From a virus, in IMG/VR virus record IMGVR_UViG_3300049043_000133, positions 28,659 through 92,658 of that record: a stretch of DNA of 64,000 nucleotides. One strand, written 5' to 3'. The notes beneath the pieces were generated by a model that saw only the letters and a program-made list of their open reading frames with translations, had not been told where the DNA came from and searched no databases. The position numbers were made by a program, and so were the translations under genes. Positions 18,349 through 61,943 of the stretch are shown piece after piece (the first letter of the stretch is position 1; every line of letters starts with the position of its first letter).

Positions 18349-18400
18349 TTGACAGGATTTCCTGACAATGCTATGATAAATAAATCTTAAGAAATGTAAC
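18349..18400 (+). promoter_or_regulatory. psbA promoter (TTGACA-17-TATGAT, overlapping ATAAATA) with reverse HLR1-like box
   Basis: TTGACA 18349-18354, TATGAT 18372-18377; minus strand GTTACATT-TC-TTAAGATT 18400-18383. Confidence 0.7.
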
Positions 18401-18410
18401 GTTTCTTAAT

Positions 18411-18500
18411 CCTCTACCTAACCGAGACCTATGGGGAGGTTAAACACAGTCTCTCATATCCACAGTGGAGGGTGCTGTGGAGTATAATGTATTACCAGTT
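18411..18500 (+). ncRNA. PhotoRC-II-like cis-regulatory RNA in the psbA leader
   Basis: AACCGAGAC...GTCTCTCATATC and CCACAG-TGGAGGGTG-CTGTGG stems directly upstream of psbA; boundaries approximate. Confidence 0.65.
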
Positions 18501-18532: not shown

Positions 18533-21398
<2,866 letters not shown>

Positions 21399-28565: not shown

Positions 28566-28907
28566 GTTTTTTTAAATCTGAAGTCGTCCGTGCTGAGATG
28601 GCAGAAATTAGTGAATTGCAAGAGGACGTTTATCAAAATGTCTTTAAGTTCTCCACGATGTCAAAAGAAGAACAACTTAATCATGTAAAAACTCTTGAAA
28701 AACTTCTTGAAAAACAAAAAGTTCTTTACACCAGATTAAGTTTATCTGATGATCCTGAAGCAGTTGCAATGAAAGAAAAAATTTCTGAATCTGCACTCAA
28801 TGATGGGACTTCCCCAAAATGTGGATATGAATGTTATTTTTAATAATATGTCAAGAATGTTGGATATTATGAAAGAACAAATTGACAAGACAGGTTCCGA
28901 CCTGTAG
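28562..28907 (+). CDS. DUF1825-like protein; frameshift near 28800
   Basis: MSFFKSEVVRAEM, EKQKVLYTRLSLSDDPEA. Confidence 0.7.
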
Positions 28908-51440: not shown

Positions 51441-52105
51441 TTTTATTTTTTACTTCCTGATGGTGGATCATACACTGATGAAAATGGTATAATCACGACA
51501 AGAAGTAGATTACCTGGTCCTGGTTTAGGATATACATATAATTCTAATAATTGTGGATTAGGAACTGCTTATGGTGATTCGGAACTCAAATCTTGTGGTA
51601 GTTATACTGGAAAATTTACGTGTGATGGGAATTTAAAACGCATTCAAATTTAATCGTTGATCAAGATTTGAATGTTTCTGGTCTATCAACTTTTATTGGT
51701 ATCACAACTTCCACATCTACTTTATTTGCAAATCAATTAAGTATTGCTGGAATTACAACTTCAAAAACTTACGCAGCATCGGGAACAACAACTAGCACAG
51801 ATGGAACAACACCTCAACCACAAATTGATGCTAGTGTAACACAACTTTATTATCATTCTGCATCTTTTGGTGGAGACAGAACTTTTCAAATTTCTAATTT
51901 AACCAACGGAAAATCTGTTACTCTTTATATTCGTAACACAAATGCATCCTCTAGAAATATTGGATTCCAAGCAAGTACAACCTCTTCTGGATTTTCAACA
52001 GTTGAATTGTCGGGAAATGTTTCCAGTTTTAGTCTTGGTTCTTCTTCAACTAGGATGGTTTATATTGTAAACATTGGTGGCAATTTTGTTGGTGCTGTGT
52101 ATTGA
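51433..52105 (+). CDS. short tail-fibre-like protein; frameshifts
   Basis: LNVSGLSTFIGITT motif shared with fibre gene at 62 kb. Confidence 0.45.
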
Positions 52106-52107
52106 CA

Positions 52108-52136
52108 TTGACACCAGCACCCGACCGTGCTATGAT
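52108..52136 (+). promoter_or_regulatory. sigma70-type promoter
   Basis: TTGACA-17-TATGAT with extended TG. Confidence 0.75.
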
Positions 52137-52161
52137 AAGCAAGTAATCAACAAACCAACTA

Positions 52162-52383
52162 ATGCAAGACGAATCGTTGACGGAAATTCAACCAACTAGT
52201 GATGACAAAGAATATCTGACACGTTGCGTGGTGGATCCTGTAAAGAGAGTTGTGTACCTCTATTCCAATGAAGGGTCAGAACGACAAGTGCCCTGTGAAA
52301 CTGTCGAAGAATTTATGAATGTGCTACAGTATGTTCGTGATACAGTGGATGAAACAACAGTCTCGTATGTAAATCCACTTTAA
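52162..52383 (+). CDS. conserved hypothetical protein
   Basis: RCVVDP..R.VYLYSNEG...CETVEEFMNVL. Confidence 0.6.
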   Translation: MQDESLTEIQPTSDDKEYLTRCVVDPVKRVVYLYSNEGSERQVPCETVEEFMNVLQYVRDTVDETTVSYVNPL

Positions 52384-52445
52384 AATCCAAAAAAGGTCGA
52401 AGAAAATCCCGGTAAAAATTTTACGCACGATACTTTTTTAAAAGT

Positions 52446-52652
52446 ATGTATCCATTTAAAATCAATCTAACAAATCTTTGTGAATCTCCTGTCAAAACAA
52501 CACCACAAAATGTTCAAGAGGCAAATGAAGGTTTATTCTACTCTAAAATGACACTTCCTGCTGCAGCAAAACACTGTGGTATGACACAAAAAGAAATGAA
52601 GTTGACATTTTATGAGTATTTGAAGTATCATCCAAGAACCTATCAAGGATGA
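52446..52652 (+). CDS. hypothetical HTH-like protein
   Basis: KTTPQNVQEANEGLF..KMTLPAAAKHCGMTQKEMKLTF. Confidence 0.55.
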   Translation: MYPFKINLTNLCESPVKTTPQNVQEANEGLFYSKMTLPAAAKHCGMTQKEMKLTFYEYLKYHPRTYQG

Positions 52653-52659
52653 TTTTTAT

Positions 52660-52941
52660 GCGAGTATGGCGAAATCGGTAGACGCACCAGACTTATGAAA
52701 ATTGAACTCATTTAGGAAACTTTATGAGTGCAAATTCCTCAAATTCGGTGAAACCTGTAAAATGGCAATACCGAGCCAAGCATCGCAAGATGAAGGTGCT
52801 AGAGACTAGACGGGGAACACCTAAACTGAAAGGTATGGTGAAGGTATAGTCCAGACCACAAACTGAAAAGGTAGTGAAAACTATAGTGGTAAGAAAATCT
52901 GTTGGGGGCAACCCGTCGGGAGTTCAAGTCTCCCTACCGCA
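52660..52941 (+). tRNA. trnL: tRNA-Leu(UAA), exons 52660-52694 and 52894-52941
   Basis: GCGAGTA..TGGCGAAATCGGTAGACGC D arm; spliced anticodon arm CAGA-CTTAAAA-TCTG; long variable arm; GGGAGTTCAAGTCTCCC T arm. Confidence 0.9.
52695..52893 (+). mobile_element. group I intron (IC3-type, 199 nt, no ORF) after U34 of the anticodon
   Basis: P AAATTCGGTGAAAC, Q GGCAATACCGAGCC, R AGAGACTAGACGG, S GAAGGTATAGTCC; follows U, ends in G. Confidence 0.9.
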
Positions 52942-52984
52942 TTAGAGTTCACACTCTAAATAAACAAAAGTAGGAGTATATCCT

Positions 52985-53254
52985 ATGAAGTACAGAATTG
53001 AAACCGCATATTGTTGGTACAATAGAGGAACTCAAATTGTTCTAATGTACTTTATAAATCATATTCCATTTACTTTCGACGAACTTCCTGATTGTGCAAT
53101 GCAAGATTTGGAAGTGATTCACTTGGCAGATCAACAATTAAGGTATGAACCAGAGGACTTATATCGTACATCATTCTATTTGATTGATGAGGAATGTCAT
53201 CCAATGTTATTTGAGGTTGAACTGGAAAATCCTGAAATGTTGCCTGTTGATTAA
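52985..53254 (+). CDS. conserved hypothetical protein
   Basis: AGGAG RBS; IVLMYFINHIPFTFDELP, YLIDEECHP. Confidence 0.6.
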   Translation: MKYRIETAYCWYNRGTQIVLMYFINHIPFTFDELPDCAMQDLEVIHLADQQLRYEPEDLYRTSFYLIDEECHPMLFEVELENPEMLPVD

Positions 53255-53257
53255 TTT

Positions 53258-53332
53258 GCCCTTATAAGCATTGTGGTAGATGCAACGGTTTTGTAAACCG
53301 TCAGTAGTACAGTTCAATTCTGTTATGGGGCT
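53258..53332 (+). tRNA. trnT: tRNA-Thr(UGU), imperfect cloverleaf
   Basis: GCCC/GGGC acceptor; ACGGT-TTTGTAA-ACCGT anticodon arm; ACAG-TTCAATT-CTGT T arm. Confidence 0.7.
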
Positions 53333-53353
53333 TGAGTTTCTAATACAACTCTT

Positions 53354-53512
53354 ATGTCTTTACTTTCACAAACAGATCGCCAAATGGTGATTGAAGCATT
53401 AGAATATTATATTCAAAAACTTAAAGAAGATAACTGCACTGAGGCTTCTATCACTGCATTTCAAACACTTCTTCTTTGGGTTGAATTGGAGCACTTTAAA
53501 AATGAAAATTAA
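53354..53512 (+). CDS. hypothetical protein
   Basis: MSLLSQTDRQMVIEALEYYIQKLKEDNC... Confidence 0.5.
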   Translation: MSLLSQTDRQMVIEALEYYIQKLKEDNCTEASITAFQTLLLWVELEHFKNEN

Positions 53513-53688
53513 TCTCTGGCATTGTAAAGAAATGGGGCAGTGGAGATGGACTATTATGTGATGATTGTCGCCCAGTTATTAAGACAAGTATGCAGGACAA
53601 CAACCAAATTTTAAGGGATGCTATGAATGATGTGGCAAATACAGTAGAATATATTTTGGAATCCAAACAAAGTGAGTAAAAATACTTA

Positions 53689-54314
53689 ATGAAATCTGAT
53701 TTTTATATAGATAGGGTGAGCAAAGAAGAACTTAAACAATCTTCTTTTATACTTATCATTATCTAAAAGACGAATCAAAAGATTTCAAATCAGGCTTCAA
53801 CTATGGACTTTTTAGATCCACATTCGAATGCCCTCTTAATCTTGGCGGCTGCCTCGGTGCTTGCATTTTTAGTACTCTCCCAGTTCCAGAAATTGCCGTA
53901 GGTGCTTTCGGACTAGAAAGAAATCAACAAAAAGGAATATACGAATTATCAAGACTCTGCATACATCCAGATATACAAAAAGAAGAATATAATATCACAT
54001 CCTGGTTCTTAAGTCGTTGCATACGGAGATTTAAAAAAGATGCAAATGTTTCTGCTATTCTTAGTTACGCTGATTCTACTCGCCACAACGGAACTATCTA
54101 CCGCGCTTGTAATTTCAAGTATTATGGGTTAACAGATCCTAAAAAAGATTTTTATTATGCTGACGGGACCAAACATTCAAGAGGTTCTGTAAAGGGACAG
54201 GAGGGTGAATGGAAAGATCGTCCAAGAAAACATAGATACTTAATGATATTTGATAAAGAATTGGAAAAAAGGTTGACGTGGAAGGAAGAGAAGTGGTATA
54301 ATAATGATGTGTGA
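53689..54314 (+). CDS. Mom-family (GNAT-like) adenine-modification protein; frameshift near 53740, absent from ORF track
   Basis: YHYL, YELSRLCIHP, SWFLSRC, ILSYADS..HNGTIYRACNFKYYG, RKHRY. Confidence 0.8.
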
Positions 54315-54328
54315 AGGAAGTACGCCTT

Positions 54329-54360
54329 AAGAGACCAGGATTATTCCTGGTCTCTTTTTT
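54329..54360 (+). terminator. rho-independent terminator
   Basis: AAGAGACCAGGA-TTAT-TCCTGGTCTCTT plus T run. Confidence 0.88.
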
Positions 54361-54404
54361 CGTATGATAAATAATCCATAACGGAAACTATAAGCACTAA
54401 TAAA

Positions 54405-57400
54405 ATGGGATCTCAGTCGATTAGATAATTTTCTGAAGTCTGTTCGCGGTACAATAATTTATGTTGATCCAAACTCTCTTGATTCAACTGATAGTATAGA
54501 AAATACTGGAAATAGTTTAACAAGACCATTTAAAACTATTCAACGTGCTTTAATAGAGGCATCAAGATTTTCTTATCAAAGAGGACTGAATAACGATAGA
54601 TTTGGAAAGACTACAATTCTTCTTTATCCTGGTGATCATATTGTCGATAACCGTCCTGGATGGATTCCTGATGGCGCAAATAACTTTAGATTAAGAGACG
54701 GAACTACTTCAAATGATTTCCCTCCGTTTGATTTAACAACTAACTTTGATATCACTACTTCAAGTAATGCACTTTATAAACTGAATAGTATTCACGGTGG
54801 AGTTATCATTCCTCGTGGCACTTCAATTGTTGGTTTAGATCTTCGTAAAACTAAAATCCGTCCAAAATATGTTCCAGATCCAACGAACGATAATATTGCA
54901 AGATCAACCATCTTTCGTGTAACTGGTGGATGTTATTTTTGGCAGTTCTCCATTTTTGATGCTGATCCAAATGGACAGTGTTTTATTGATTATACTTCCA
55001 ATTTATTTGTTCCCAATTTCTCTCATCATAAACTGACTTGTTTTGAATATGCTGATGGAACAAATGATGTAAGCATTAATGATACCTTTATAACATACTC
55101 CACAGATCGTACAGATCTGGATATGTATTATGAAAAAGTTGGACTTGCTTATGGACAGTCATCAGGTCGTGCAATTGAACCTGATTATCCAAGTTCTGGT
55201 CTTGATATTCAACCAAAAATTGATGAATATCGTATCGTTGGTCCAACAGGTGGTGAAGTTGGAATTACCAGTATCAAGGCTGGTGATGGAGTTACTGCAA
55301 CTACAACAATTACTGTTACCACAGCATCAACGGTAAGTGGTCTTGATGTTGATACTGCATTTAGAATCCGCAATGTTTCTGAATCCACTTATAATGGTCA
55401 GTTTGTTGTAACCGAAAGAGTAGATGATACTAATTTTAAGTATCAAGTTCAGAATACACCAATTCTTGCACTTCCAAGTGTAACTAATGCATCACTGACT
55501 TTATCATCCGATACTGTTACATCAGCATCACCATACATCTTTAATATCTCTCTGCGTTCTGTGTATGGAATGTGTGGTGTTCTTGCTGATGGTGATAAAG
55601 CAAGTGGATTTAAGTCGATGGTCATTGCCCAATTTACGGGTATTGGTCTACAGAAAGATGATAAAGCATTTGTACTTTATAATTCAACAACTGGAGAATA
55701 TGACGATAGTACCAAACCTGGAAATGAAACAATCAGCAATAATTCCAGAGCAATTTTCAAACCATCCTATCGTAACTTTCATATCAAAACAATTAACGAA
55801 GCATTTATTCAAAACGTTTCGATTTTTGCGATTGGTTATGCAGAACACTTCTCAACAGATAGTGGTGGTGATCAGTCAGTTACGAACTCTAACTCCAACT
55901 TTGGTGCAAAAGCACTTGTTGCATCTGGATTTAGAAAAAGTGCATTCCCTCAAGACGATTTAGGATATATTACACACATTATTCCTCCAAAGGAATTACC
56001 ACTTACAGAAACTGCGATTGAATTTAATGCGATTGATGTAAACAAAACTGTTGGTGTTGCATCTACGGGTCATTTATATCTCTACAATCAAACAAACATT
56101 GATACTCCACCAGAAAACGTACTAGAAGGTTATAGAATTGGTGCGAGAGAAAATGATGCACTGAAAGTTCTTGTTTCTTCGGGGGTTCTGTAACAGAATA
56201 CAGTGCTCGTATTGTAATGCCTGGATCTCAATCCAGTTCTGAAAAGAGATTTACAGTTGCAAAAGTTGGAACTGCAAATAGTATTACTGGAGGAAATACA
56301 TTAAATCTTACAAGCAGTCATACATTCTATAGTGGAGAGTCAGTTAGAATTATTAGTGATAATGCACAACTGCCTGATGGTATTACGCCAAATACAGTGT
56401 ATTATGCAATTACTGACACTGTTGATGGTACATTAACATCAAGTCAATTAAAACTTGCAAAAACAGAAACTGATTCCACGGTTGCAACGAATGCAATCAC
56501 AATCAATAACAAAGGTGGTGTTCTGTCTGTAATCAGTAGAGTTACTGATAAGAACTCTGGAGACATTGGACACCCAGTTCAATATGATAGTACAAATAGT
56601 CAGTGGTACATTAAAGTTGCTACTGCATCTACAGAAAATAACATTTATTCCACAATTGTAGGACTTGGATCCACTGCACTTGGAGTAGCAACACCAAGAA
56701 CATACTTCAAGCGTAGACCAGATAATCGTACATGCAACTGATACTCTTTACCGTGTTCGTTATGTGATTCCAAAGAGCACTGGAGCAACGGTTGCAAGAC
56801 CTCCAAGTTGATGCATTTATTCTTCAAGAATCCAATACTTCGATTGGATCAACTGATGGTGAAATTCAAACTTACTTTGGAAGTGGATCATTAACAAATG
56901 TTAATGATCAGAGAAACTTTAGATTTGTTGCAAATGCAGAGTGGTCATCAAGCACTGCAAAGATCACCACAGAACTTCCTCATAATTTATCTGTTGGATC
57001 ACAAGTTGAACTCGTAAACATTAAGAGTACAAATAATCTTACTGGAATTGCAAATACTGGATTTAACAGATCTTATACTGTAACAGGAATTAGTAGTGCA
57101 AAACAATTTAATGTAAGTCTTACAACTGATCCTGGAACATTCACGAACGATACTTCTGCAAGAACAACATCACTTCCATACTTTAAGAGAAAGCAGTACA
57201 AAGATACTTATTACGTTTATAGATCACAAGAAGCACAAAAGTATGTTGCAGGGCAGCAAGATGGTATTTACTATATCACTGTACTGAATGGTTCAAACAG
57301 TCCATCAGTTGCACCATTTACTGATGAAAAGTTCTCACAACCAGTTAAAGAACTTTATCCACAAATCAATCGTGATAATTCAAAATCAGATCCGGACTCT

Positions 57401-59922
57401 ACAACCTGTGCTGCATCCTCATCTTTAATTGGCGAAGTCGTCGTTAATGACGTTCGCAACAGTATTACAAGAGAAACTGTTGATAAGTTCCTTAAGGATA
57501 CTGATGTTGGAGTTGGTTTAACTGATATCACTTCTGGTATTGGTAACACGTCTCATACTATTCATACAAGCATTGATCACGGTCTGAACAGAATTACCAG
57601 ACTGACCCTTACCACTGCTGGTGCTGGTTATGGATCTGGTACTGCAGGAGACCTTTACAATGCAAGACTTGTAGGATTTGCTAGATCAACCACTGGTCAA
57701 CACGCAACAGCAAAGATCACGATAAATGGATCTGGTGCAATCACCGACATTAAGATTATGGACGGTGGTTCTGCATATGGTATTGGTAATACTCTTGCGG
57801 TTGTTGGTGTTGGAACAACTACTGGATATTCCCAAGCAGTCGTAACTGTTGCAGGTGTTTATAACAACGTTGGAGACACTGTAAGAATTACTGGTGTTTC
57901 CTCTGAAGCATATACTTCATTTAATGATGTTTACAGAATTACTCAAGTTGCAGTTGGTGCAGCAAAGAGTTTTGTTGTTACTTCAACCAGTGCGATTGGA
58001 ATTGGTACGACTTCTGGTATTGGAGAAACACTTACTTCTAAAGCATTTGCATATGTAACAGGTGAAGCAATTCGTATCAGTGCTCTTTCTTATGATAACA
58101 CAACTGGAGTTGGTATTGTAACTTCCATCAACAATCACGGACTTAAGGTAGATACTAAAGTTCGTCTTGTTGGTGCAAATGAGAGTCTCTACAATGGTGA
58201 TTTTGTTGTTACTGAAAACGTAAGCAATACATCCTTTAAGATTAACGTTGGTCTTTCTACAAGTGCTCCAACAGCAACTGGAACACTCTTTGCATACCGC
58301 GAAGGTGTATCATCAAATGATGGTGTGATTACTGTAGATAATGAAAATCTTAAATGGTAGAATGAATACCATTTATGCTGGAATTACGACAACTCTTTCC
58401 AATGCAATTATCAACGCAACCACTGATTCAATCAACTTTACAAATGCAGGTAATCTGGATGTAAACATTGGTGATTACTTGATGATTGATGATGAAATTG
58501 TAAGAATCAAAACCACGACTTCTACAAGCAGTGTAACTGGCGTATCAAACCCAGTCTCTGTGTTCCGTGGTGTTCTTGGAAGTAAAGCAACCACTCACAT
58601 CGCTGGTGCAGTTGTAAAGAAGATTGATATCAAACCAATTGAATTAAGAAGACATTCTATCATTCGTGCGTCAGGTCATACCTTTGAATATGTTGGATTT
58701 GGTCCAGGTAACTATTCAACTGCATTCCCAGATAAGCAAGACCGTCAGATTTCTGCACAAGAAGAACTTCTTGCACAATCAACCAGAAAGAATGGTGGCA
58801 TTAACTTCTATACTGGAATGAATGATAAGGGTATCTCATATTCTGGTAACAAGAAGATGAGTTCCATTACTGGATTAGAGGAAATCTTTGATACCCCAAT
58901 TCAGACCATCACTGGAGAGGATATTGGACCACAGCAAGGACTGAATGTTATTAACCCAACTGAAGGATCATTCTACGTTCGATTCGTGTTGAAGGTGGAT
59001 CTGATGGTAAAGTAACATCAGAATTCAATGGTCCTGTTATTTTTGCTAATAAAATTACTTCGAATTCGAACGAAAGGTATTGAAGCAAATTCACTCTTTC
59101 TGCAAGGAATACAACTGTATCACGCAAATATACTGTAGGAATTTCTACACCATCTCTTGCAGGAAACGTTGGTGACGTTGTTTATAATGCAATTCCTTCT
59201 AGTGGTGGATATCTTGGTTGGGTATATGCTGATGATAACAAGTGGAAACGGTTTGGATCCATTAGTACTGCAACAGATTCGGGTTTAATCCGACATTTAA
59301 TATTATTCGTGGTAATACTTATATTGGAAATACTTTTATTGGAACATTTTCTGGAGACGGATCTGGATTGACGGGAGTAGATAGTATTTGGGTTGTTGAT
59401 GGTGTAGGAATTCACACTACAAGATCTGTTGGTGTTGGAACAACAACGGCAGTTTCTGGAAATGCTTTATATGTAAATGGTAATACGACAATCAACGGAA
59501 CTCTAAATGTTTATGAAATTATTGAAAAAGCAACAATCAGTGCTGGTATTTTAACAGCACAAAATCCTGTTGGTATTGCAACAACTACAAATATTGATCT
59601 TGCAACCAATAATGTTTATTACTTTACAAATCAAACCCAAGGTAATTGGAATCTTAATTTTAGAAGGAGATTCAACTACCACTTGAATAGTTTCTTGACA
59701 ACTGGTGATTCAATTACTGTTGCAATTCTTACAAATCAAGGATCCACAGCATACTATAACTCATCTATCAGTATTGATGATGTTTCGGTTACTCCAAAAT
59801 ATTATGGTGGTAATCAAATTATTTCTGGAAATGTAAATAGTTTGGATATGTATACGTATGTGATTATTAAAACTGGATCTGCTGCTTATACTGTTCTTGC
59901 TTCTCAATCCCAATACGCATAA
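54405..59922 (+). CDS. very large virion structural/tail fibre protein; frameshifts
   Basis: SRLDNFLKSVRGTIIYVDPN...RPFKTIQRALIE; SASPYIFNISLRS; ELRRHSIIRASGHTFEYVGFGPGNYST; collinear ORF fragments. Confidence 0.7.
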
Positions 59923-59928
59923 TAAACT

Positions 59929-61943
59929 ATGAGTCCATTATTAGGTTCGATTGGAGCTATATTGAATATTCCTATAGAGGAAATTTGAATGATTATTCCA
60001 AATACCTTTACTTTTACTAATATATCGAACGCAGAACCAGGAACTGCATATACAACAGGAATCACCACAATCACGGGTATTAATTATAAAGCAAGAGTTT
60101 CAATATCTGGAATTGGTTCATTTTCTGTAAATGGTGGAGGATTTACGACAACATCTTCATTTATTCGAAATAATGATACAGTTTCAATTCAAATTCCGAC
60201 AACTTCTGGAACAAGCACAGATTTTTCTAAACTTTATAATTCAATTTTAACAATCGGAAAAGTTTCATCAAGTTGGTCAGTTATTACAAGAAATCTTGAT
60301 CAAACACCAGTTTCTTTTGCATTTACATCAGTAAGTGGAATGAATGTTGGAGTCGGAACCACCAGTAATACTGTAACTTTATCTGGACTTGAACCTGGAA
60401 TTCCAATCACTTCTCAAATTGTTTCTGGAATTGGATCATTTAAAATTAACGGAGCATCTCCAATTTATTCTGGAAATGTCACTAATACAGATGCTATTCA
60501 AATGGTATTGACATCTCCAGTATCGTATGCATCTACAAATACATCAGAAATTCGTGTTGGATCTTTTATCACTTTCTTTCTCAGTTTCAACTAGAGCAGC
60601 AGAACATTACTCCAGATGCTTTTACTTTTACCGCACAAACCGATGTCAATTTCTCAACAACAGTAGATAGTAATACAATTACTATTTCTGGATGCGATGC
60701 CGATGTTTTCCTATCTGCATCAATTTCTGGAGGAAGTGGTTTGTTTAAAGTTGTAAGAAGTGGAGTGACTATTAGAGATTTCAGTCCATTAAGTTATGAT
60801 TTGGTTCAGAACGGAGATCAAATTACTGTTCAGATTAACTTCATCTTCATCTGGAAGTACATCAACTTCAACGACATTAACCGTTTCTGGAGTATCTGCA
60901 ACATTCACTGTAACAACAAGAGTATCCGCAATCAATACAATTCCCAATCAATTTACATTTACTGATGTCAACGATCAAAGTTTAAGTTCAACAATTACAA
61001 GTAATACTATTACATTGTCTGGAATGACTCCAGGAGAAAATGGAACTGCATCAATCAGTGGTGGAACCTTTAGAGTGGTCCGAAGTGGATCTACAATTCG
61101 TGATTTTTCTTCTTCATCTACCAGTGTTAGAAACGGAGATGAAATTACGTTAAGAACAACTAGTTCATCATCACCGGTTCAACTGTTCAAGTTTCTTTTA
61201 CTGTGAGTGGTACAAATTCTATTAGTTTGCCAGCAACAAGTGGAAGCACAAGTGACACTTGGGCAGTAACAACTCGCAGTCCAAATTGCAATCCTCTTTC
61301 GGCAAATTATAATTTAACTAATGTAAACAACGCAAGTCGTTCAACCACATATAGTCAATCATTTACACTTACTGATGTTGACAATTCTTGTTCGGGATTC
61401 ACTGTAGCAGTTGATGGTGCTACTGCCTACCTAAGAGTTGACGGTGTGACTGGAAATAATTTAACTGCACAATATGGAAGCAGCATTACTGTTTTTATGA
61501 CATCTTCATCAAGTTATGGAAGTTTAGTGACCACTGGTTTTTATATTAGAAGAGGTGGATCTACAGTGGTTGTTCAAACTTGGGGTATTACAACAGAGGA
61601 TGCGCCAGCACCACCACCAAATTGTAATCCATCGAATGCAAATTATAATTTAACAAGTATACGTAATGCCGATCTTGGTAGATTTTATAGTCAATCATTT
61701 AGTTTGACTGATGTTGATCGGTCTTGTACTGGATTTACAGTATCTGCTAGCTGAACAGGTACAACTTATGTGGTGGTTGATGGTAGGACAGGTAATAATT
61801 TACCAGCACGATATGGAAGCAGTATTACTGTTGTTATGCAATCTTCTTCGCAATTTGATACAGTAATTTATGGAAATTTTTCAATATCAGGTCCTAGTGG
61901 TGGAGTTTCTCAATCTTGGTTTATTGAAACAAGAGTATCCTAA
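59929..61943 (+). CDS. Ser/Thr-rich repeat-domain tail fibre/adhesin; frameshifts
   Basis: four P..F.FT...SNT(I/V)TLSG modules then two NCNP..ANYNLT...YSQSF modules. Confidence 0.6.

Follow-up and report, generated by a model that had tools for sequence, protein, structure and literature searches.

A predicted IC3-type group I ribozyme interrupts the tRNA-Leu(UAA) gene of a probable freshwater cyanophage and likely belongs to a lineage separate from the cyanobacterial trnL intron

The transfer RNA (tRNA) gene for leucine with anticodon UAA at positions 52660–52941 of a 64,000-nucleotide stretch of viral DNA (IMG/VR virus record IMGVR_UViG_3300049043_000133, positions 28,659 to 92,658; this whole stretch is called the window in the following) is interrupted between U34 and A35, as seen by alignment with intronless alleles. 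Taken together as one explanation, our data make it quite probable that the insert is a genuine IC3-type group I ribozyme in a cyanophage tRNA-Leu(UAA) gene, that it belongs to an intron lineage separate from the ancient cyanobacterial and plastid trnL intron at the same site and found chiefly in phage tRNA genes (most often Leu-UAA, but also Arg-UCU, Ile/Met-CAU, Asn, Ser and others), and that the flaws of this particular copy are mostly errors of assembly. The ribozyme class, the site and the trnL introns of non-cyanobacterial bacteria are known; the phage setting is little described.

Intron boundaries were set by aligning the intronless tRNA-Leu(UAA) genes of the Synechococcus phages ACG-2014e and S-RIM2. 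In a BLAST search of GenBank phages the intron flanks appear as two tRNA halves, and an intact tRNA-Leu(UAA) is present in ACG-2014e, ACG-2014i, S-SM2 and S-RIM2. The Rfam group I intron model RF00028 matches 52684–52875 with 61.4 bits (E 3.9e-13, gathering score 50, full model 1–253 covered), and relatives of the intron score 63–68 bits. Predicted exon joining gives the anticodon loop CUUAAAA. A preliminary description of this DNA had named a 199-nt intron free of any open reading frame (ORF) after U34, with the loop restored by splicing, and had placed it at the cyanobacterial and plastid trnL(UAA) site; alignment and RF00028 match agree with this anatomy, and the alignment confirms the site as U34/A35 of tRNA-Leu(UAA). 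The introns of all relatives end in ...GGTA(A/C/T)G ahead of AAAAT. The arrangement CUU/a...g/AAAA, with U at position −1, g at omega and insertion at loop positions 3/4 of tRNA-Leu(UAA), is that of class Leu.3Ug, the bacterial tRNA-Leu(UAA) group I introns, whose class and site are known (Williams, 2020; bioRxiv 10.1101/2020.01.27.920355). Base A73 of tRNA-Leu lies at 52941, and CCA is not encoded. In the GenBank record of ACG-2014e (KJ019054.1; L001 308–687) a 'hypothetical protein' coding sequence is annotated over tRNA-Leu(UAA), and no tRNA feature is given there. The parts of the gene and intron are as follows:

52660–52694, plus strand: 5′ exon of tRNA-Leu(UAA), acceptor base 1 to U34 (alignment with ACG-2014e and S-RIM2)
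52695–52893, plus strand: group I (IC3-type) intron of 199 nt with no gene inside (RF00028, intronless alleles, consensus fold)
52704–52706, plus strand: internal guide of P1, GAA here and GAG in relatives, pairing with exon C32-U33-U34
52707–52728, plus strand: P2 hairpin with the GAAA tetraloop L2 at 52716–52719; all five counted pairs covary
52735–52740, plus strand: 5′ strand of P3, partner 52812–52817; six pairs, 100% paired, five changed on both sides
52745–52774, plus strand: P4–P5 domain (P4 52745–52750/52769–52774, P5 52754–52755/52764–52765); 100% paired
52775–52797, plus strand: P6/P6a hairpin with GCAA loop (helix count)
52799, plus strand: extra C in J6/7, in this contig only and absent from 31 of 31 relatives, probably an insertion error
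52804–52808, plus strand: 5′ strand GACTA of P7, the guanosine-binding helix; pseudoknot with 52847–52851
52812–52817, plus strand: 3′ strand of P3, partner 52735–52740 (same helix count)
52818–52840, plus strand: P8 hairpin with the motif CCTAAA...TATGG at 52820–38 (motif from sequence, helix backed by the covariation count)
52847–52851, plus strand: 3′ strand TAGTC of P7; five pairs, 100% paired, three compensatory (e.g. in L079)
52855–52890, plus strand: P9 domain (P9 52855–59/52886–90, small hairpin 52863–70, P9a 52871–75/52880–84; helix count)
52893, plus strand: omega-G, the guanosine that closes the intron at its 3′ splice site; AAAAT of exon 2 comes next (alignment)
52894–52941, plus strand: 3′ exon of tRNA-Leu(UAA), from A35 through the long variable arm, T arm and acceptor 3′ strand (alignment)

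The fold of the 199-nt intron as a group I core is strongly supported. For 19 phage trnL introns that differ from one another by more than 8%, RNAalifold returns the anticodon stem, P2, P3, P4, P5, P6, P8 and P9, with 28 of the 49 predicted pairs changed on both sides. In an explicit structure, obtained from this fold by adding P1 and the P7 pseudoknot and removing one spurious pair, standard pairs occupy 97.6% of 1039 pair cells, as compared to 81.1% after shuffling and 26–43% when the partners are slid. Compensatory (two-sided) changes are found at 31 of 55 pairs, inclusive of P3 and the P7 pseudoknot, and none of 500 shuffles reaches any of these measures. In P1, the U34·G52704 wobble at the 5′ splice site and the pair U33–A52705 are present in 19 of 19 introns and C32–G in 18; the single unpaired cell at C32/52706 belongs to the window. 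The P4–P5 domain contains the core motif CAAATTCGGTGAAACC...ACCGAG, and P9a is closed by a GAAA loop (52876–79). On the sequence level the P8 motif is a variant of the 11-nt tetraloop receptor, with A-U replacing G·U. By analogy with the structure of the Azoarcus intron, this receptor-like motif is likely the docking site for L2. A 67-aa antisense ORF at 52708–52911, together with longer antisense frames in relatives, was considered as a gene and rejected, because the substitution pattern follows RNA pairing; we read the 67-aa frame as a probable accident of RNA conservation.

Based on this structure, a conventional course of splicing may be proposed. The transcribed intron would fold into the usual P1–P9 core, and the exon end CUU would pair with the guide GAG, giving a U·G wobble at the splice site. 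A free guanosine in P7 would attack the 5′ splice site, whereupon G52893 would occupy the guanosine site and the exons would be joined. The loop CUUAAAA would thereby be restored, and the expected ligated junction reads ...CCAGACUU followed by AAAAUCUGU....

Bacterial introns for comparison came from 185,579 species genomes, in which a generic IC3 pattern matched at least 120 loci; among the loci listed, 77 of 120 are trnL(UAA) introns, 22 of them cyanobacterial. MAFFT alignments were used for a quick tree of 188 introns and for an IQ-TREE analysis of 140 representatives over 217 columns, and both are concordant on lineage placement. The 22 sampled cyanobacterial trnL introns and one from an unnamed bacterium form a clade with support of 100/100 on a stem of 0.71, and the window lies outside. 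Its own clade of 29 (91/83) comprises 19 other viral trnL introns, 5 introns of other viral tRNAs and 4 cyanobacterial tRNA-fMet introns. This clade is nested in one of 88 (96/83), which adds 50 non-cyanobacterial trnL introns from Alphaproteobacteria, Acidobacteriota, Bacteroidota and others. Azoarcus-type introns, which sit in CAU tRNAs of Betaproteobacteria and of some phages, have a clade of their own (Shimodaira–Hasegawa-like approximate likelihood ratio test, SH-aLRT, 97–98 in the first tree), and in IQ-TREE they meet the clade of the window only at the 114-row level.

Sequence identities and motifs add to this picture. Over the kept alignment columns, the median identity to the window is 79% for viral trnL introns (maximum 95%), 67.5% for non-cyanobacterial bacterial trnL introns, 66% for Azoarcus-type introns, 65% for cyanobacterial fMet introns (maximum 71%) and 60% for canonical cyanobacterial trnL introns, the lowest of all groups; virus-borne tRNA introns are 73–95% identical to it. 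The window has the motifs CGGTG/ACCGAG, GACTAGACGG and CCTAA..TATGG, whereas canonical introns have CAGGG/CCTGAG, GACTCGACGG and ACCC..GGGT. The CCTAA/TATGG motif of P8 is also present in Azoarcus-type and Rhizobiaceae trnL introns and is missing from canonical cyanobacterial ones. The preliminary description was therefore right in finding the core less like the canonical trnL intron, given the clade that excludes the window and the low identity, and the motif differences that it had listed are real.

Among viruses the intron is widespread. A scan of IMG/VR with an exact pattern for the P4/P6 core, which requires an Azoarcus-like core, matched at least 119 contigs. Splice sites were assigned by ARAGORN with introns allowed and by an explicit CUU/AAAA test; among the matches listed, 73 of 119 viral contigs carry the intron at U34/A35 of tRNA-Leu(UAA), and many tRNA-Leu genes of the set have a C·U mismatch in the anticodon stem. 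The anticodon stem of the window (CCAGA/TCTGT), an intron length of 197–201 nt and the gene neighbourhood are shared by 31 of the listed 73. The same core also interrupts viral tRNA-Arg(UCU), Ile/Met(CAU), Asn, Ser, Tyr, Gln and Phe genes. A 735-kb uncultured phage (LR756501.1; L002 394–684) has a 205-nt intron of 79% identity at the same site of its trnL(UAA); its record bears no annotation. At least 120 viral contigs have the uninterrupted allele, with an identical anticodon arm. Some related cyanophages thus have the intron and others lack it, and the element seems to come and go. Genes for HNH endonucleases lie inside trnL(UAA) introns of two viral contigs (L080 1139–1678, L106 10705–11142) and of Bacilli metagenome-assembled genomes (MAGs; L158, L205). 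These introns, 650–700 nt in length, are probably the mobile form of the lineage; the presence of the HNH gene in some members and its absence from the window copy suggest a selfish, come-and-go behaviour. A search for a helper nuclease beside the window intron gave no Pfam match for the flanking 68-aa and 89-aa ORFs. When the 10-kb neighbourhood was compared with GenBank phages by Megablast, only two weak matches came up, in a collection that may leave out near-identical records, and within this collection no isolate with this intron in a cyanophage was found.

Two observations concern group I introns in other records. In Pelagibacter phage HTVC120P (MH598807.1, about 19599–19781; L003 1447–1629) a related intron scores 48.6 bits with RF00028 (E 2.5e-11), just below the gathering score; it lies between two coding sequences both annotated 'capsid protein', and the major capsid gene appears to be split by this unannotated intron. 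Three contigs from nominally archaeal MAGs labelled Pacearchaeota or Woesearchaeota (DPANN; L129, L138, L197) contain group I introns in tRNA-Asn(GUU), a recurrence worth noting; mis-binning has been suspected for one archaeal tRNA-intron case (Williams, 2020; bioRxiv 10.1101/2020.01.27.920355).

The preliminary description had suggested cyanophages as a possible reservoir or vector of this second intron lineage, with a bearing on the sporadic trnL introns of some freshwater cyanobacteria. Used as a BLAST query on 401 cyanobacterial genomes, the intron gave matches in 42 of these, the best 15 places being in tRNA-fMet or tRNA-Arg(CCU) and none in trnL; the best matches are tRNA-fMet introns with 73–75% identity over bases 20–199. 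A pattern that combines the exon end GACTT with the phage-type P4 was found in 0 of the 401 genomes. Among trnL introns, the same pattern recognises that of the window, 66 of 72 from viruses, all 33 from proteobacteria and all 11 from acidobacteria, and none of the 22 canonical ones. The proposal hence finds no second trnL lineage to stand on in these 401 genomes. If cyanobacteria have a link to the phage introns, it concerns the sporadic tRNA-fMet intron. Cyanobacterial tRNA-fMet introns (L247, L254–L256, from genomes G197, G245, G287 and G098) are located inside an otherwise viral clade, where they adjoin viral tRNA-Asn and tRNA-Arg(UCU) introns; 4 of the 5 sampled fMet introns fall in the clade of 29. 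The sequences thus hint that phages may move this intron. A wider hypothesis is that phage tRNA genes are the main natural home of a mobile IC3 lineage moving among tRNA species, phages and cells, and that the cyanobacterial tRNA-fMet intron was seeded from cyanophages. We offer this tentatively, as a possibility that we rather doubt; if true, it would contradict the textbook view of phage group I introns in protein genes only.

The carrier is a 92.7-kb IMG/VR virus record, 45% complete according to CheckV, with a PhotoRC-II motif (18397–18495), a glutamine riboswitch and further group I matches at about 19.7–21 kb. The tRNA exons are closest to Synechococcus phages, and many IMG/VR contigs with the same split tRNA are syntenic with this neighbourhood, at a nucleotide identity of about 70%. 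Because of these contents, the exon similarity and the synteny, we read the carrier as a cyanomyovirus. Public runs with DNA of the window are lake, freshwater and drinking-water metagenomes, and the evidence as a whole points to a freshwater T4-like cyanophage. The further RF00028-type matches, at 19712–19954 and 20744–20954 (46.5 and 50.7 bits), are downstream of PhotoRC-II, presumably in psbA. One neighbouring tRNA gene was recorded:

53258–53333, plus strand: tRNA-Thr(UGU) (ARAGORN), with the Leu-then-Thr order as in the marine cyanophage S-RIM2

UUA makes up 28% of the leucine codons in the long frames of the window, for which reason the phage should need a tRNA-Leu(UAA). Supply of Leu-UAA tRNA limits cyanophage Syn9 in Synechococcus WH5701 (PMC11726456).

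The copy in the window has a number of peculiarities. Its P1 guide region reads GAA-C in place of the GAGCC of 31 of 31 close relatives, and the guide is GAG in 18 of 18 other aligned phage introns; the weak P1 pairing that the preliminary description had remarked on is real in this sequence. The extra C at 52799 is absent from every covering contig of the public runs X2, X3 and X4. There is an extra A near 52732, and the letters of the variable arm are disturbed, unlike in the 31 relatives. One T is missing from the acceptor 3′ strand after 52937 (TAC-CGC vs TACTCGC in relatives), which leaves A4 unpaired, whereas the acceptor stems of relatives are perfect. ARAGORN, run by default and with introns allowed, makes no call for this tRNA-Leu and calls dozens of relatives. 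Unique indels in the tRNA gene amount to three in the window and two in one relative (L123), with none in the other 30; at otherwise invariant columns the window has 7 unique substitutions, and only one of the 31 relatives is comparable. Other changes are compensated: the D stem reads GCG/CGC in place of GTG/CAC in relatives (T>C with A>G), and in the P9 hairpin C>T at 52864 is offset by G>A at 52869. These compensatory changes are a sign of a gene under selection.

For four public runs (X1–X4), Logan contigs were aligned to 52000–60000. Run X1, a lake metagenome, contains the same phage at 99–100% identity, without the extra base of the window at 53262, 54410, 56731, 56805 and 58350. Contigs of related phages in X2–X4 have the consensus state at 52706, 52735, 52799 and 52937; in X4, a related contig has the C behind 52706 and the T behind 52937. 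A further X4 contig, which joins 52661 to 52941, was considered as an intronless allele and rejected, because it skips the whole tRNA gene and not the intron alone. Protein genes of the contig are broken as well. A gene of the Mom family (53705–54311; PF25680, 71.8 bits; a DNA-modification enzyme) contains 2 inserted nt that split it in comparison with four related contigs, and one extra base at 54410 parts the start codon from a long gene. From 54400 to 59916 and beyond lies the homologue of a single ORF (about 1800–1965 aa) of related phages; six relatives have it uninterrupted, whereas in the window it falls into at least six frames, and its first 600 aa gave no Pfam match. The frame-breaking indels of 1–2 nt noted in the window are at 53262, ~53752, 54410, ~56180, 56731, 56805, 58350 and ~59108, hence any frame oddity in the window may be an assembly error.

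Flaws unique to this contig, frame-breaking indels elsewhere in it, and a same-strain run without the extra base at five of those sites together make a read error the likelier cause. We thus consider it probable that the P1 defect, the missing acceptor T and the extra bases at 52732 and 52799 are assembly indel errors, although for the defects within the tRNA gene itself this is what we infer. In this case the real phage would have a consensus, splicing-competent gene. The suspicion of a read error in P1, already voiced in the preliminary description, has gained support in that the change is unique to the contig, neighbouring indels are absent from X1, and related contigs have the consensus letters. 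Owing to its indel errors, this contig is a poor type specimen.

Several points weigh against our explanation. Coverage of X1 leaves out 52534–52800, so that the P1 site is outside the same-strain comparison, and the contigs with consensus letters at P1 come from related phages of 90–95% identity. The P1 change is a G>A substitution plus a deletion. Indel density is about 5 in the 282 nt of the tRNA gene, above the frameshift density of the flanking genes. Splicing itself and the standard two-step guanosine pathway are likewise what we infer from the sequence. Sampling accounts in part for the virus-only appearance of the clade, because the viral scan pattern demands an Azoarcus-like core. Finally, approximately unbiased (AU) tests reject neither the union of the phage clade with the canonical clade (log-likelihood difference 19.5, p 0.36) nor that with the Azoarcus-type clade (p 0.16), and joining the window to the canonical clade gives p 0.24. 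As these tests are undecided on 217 columns, our claim on lineage is based on branch support and signatures and not on a significance test.

The copy may alternatively be a decaying tRNA and intron pseudogene, in which case the flaws would be real, the precursor would no longer splice, and no usable tRNA-Leu would be made. The broken C32–G pair of P1 and the missing acceptor-stem T, both seen in the window alone, the failure of ARAGORN to call the gene, and the load of unique indels and substitutions, approached by one of 31 relatives, would all fit, and the X1 contigs of the same strain do not reach the P1 site. However, the contig has frame-breaking indels in conserved genes, too, and X1 is without the extra base at five of these sites; other changes specific to the window are compensatory, its Rfam score of 61.4 bits is near those of the relatives, and UUA is a major leucine codon of this phage. 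On balance we regard decay as unlikely, and assembly error in an intact gene as the better account.

A second alternative, favoured in the preliminary description, is that the Azoarcus tRNA-Ile(CAU) lineage has moved into tRNA-Leu. The likeness on which it was founded stands: core motifs are common to both, as are CCTAA/TATGG in P8 and GAAA in L2 and L9, and the AU test leaves the union standing. But the core is not specifically Azoarcus-like. The nearest relatives are virus-borne tRNA introns, followed by non-cyanobacterial bacterial trnL introns; the Azoarcus-type introns keep to their own clade and join that of the window only at the 114-row level; at 66% identity they are no more similar to the window than bacterial trnL introns are; they are distinct in insertion site, in the layout of P9 and in the 3′ end; and the common motifs are also found in non-cyanobacterial trnL, Arg and fMet introns. 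Such a transfer therefore appears improbable to us. Still less credible, in spite of the identical site and tRNA, a cyanobacterial host group and an AU test that leaves the union standing, is descent from the canonical cyanobacterial and plastid trnL(UAA) intron by capture from the host with the tRNA gene and fast divergence in phages, since the canonical clade excludes the window at full support and at the lowest identity of all groups, the intron has no BLAST match at E<=0.01 in three cyanobacterial genomes that contain canonical introns, many related cyanophages have the same tRNA without intron, the same intron type is found at this site in Alphaproteobacteria, Acidobacteriota and Bacteroidota, and just 5 viral contigs contain the canonical core pattern.

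With regard to the literature, a review states that phage group I introns were so far all in protein-coding genes, despite many phage tRNA genes (Hausner et al., 2014; PMC3984707). Introns in phage tRNAs were previously unreported according to Devoto et al. (2019; PMC6784885), and the introns described there are not group I. Our literature search found no published report of a group I intron in a phage tRNA gene. In our data, well over a hundred contigs of uncultured phages carry the same small ribozyme, most of them in tRNA-Leu(UAA). This tRNA can decide cyanophage infection success (PMC11726456), and its supply would then depend on a self-splicing step. Two separate intron lineages at the classic trnL site would bear on the use of the intron as a marker of ancient vertical descent. 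With 197–201 nt, the phage introns are among the smallest natural group I introns, and may be handy ribozyme models.

Among known systems, the trnL introns of non-cyanobacterial bacteria resemble the phage introns in tRNA, site (U34/A35), U at −1, terminal G and 3′ end (...GGTAAG), and also in CGGNG/CCGAG in P4, GACTAGACGG and TATGG..AGTCCAGAC. They differ in that they are chromosomal, of 200–330 nt and with the guide GAGTGC, whereas the phage introns have 197–201 nt and GAGCC. A gamma-proteobacterial trnL intron was reportedly described by Vepritskiy and co-workers in 2002. The canonical cyanobacterial and plastid trnL intron (Anabaena/Nostoc type, IC3) has the tRNA, site, subgroup and overall fold in common with the phage intron, as well as P1 with CUU/GAG and then CC. 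It is set apart by its own clade, about 60% identity, CAGGG/CCTGAG in P4, GACTCGACGG, the lack of CCTAA/TATGG in P8, its P9 and 3′ end (...GGGAGAATG), and a length of 221–307 nt.

The intron in tRNA-Ile(CAU) of Azoarcus sp. BH72 and its betaproteobacterial relatives are alike in small size, IC3 core, L2 GAAA, P8 receptor motif and GAAA loop of P9, and in a three-pair P1. The sequence-level matches to the Azoarcus-type signature are GAAA of L2 at 52716–19, CCTAAA...TATGG of P8 at 52820–38 and GAAA of P9a at 52876–79. Unlike the phage intron, that of Azoarcus lies behind anticodon base 36 of a CAU tRNA, falls in a separate clade at 66% identity, and has a simpler P9 and the 3′ tail ACAAACCNG; the 3′ ends of the two types compare as ...CACAAACC(A/G)G against ...TAGTGGTAAG. 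The sporadic tRNA-fMet(CAU) intron of cyanobacteria is said, by Paquin and co-workers in 1997, to contain an endonuclease gene in some copies. This intron (Synechocystis type) differs from that of the window in its location after U33 and on the chromosome, and in that some copies are about 600–650 nt long, with room for an ORF.

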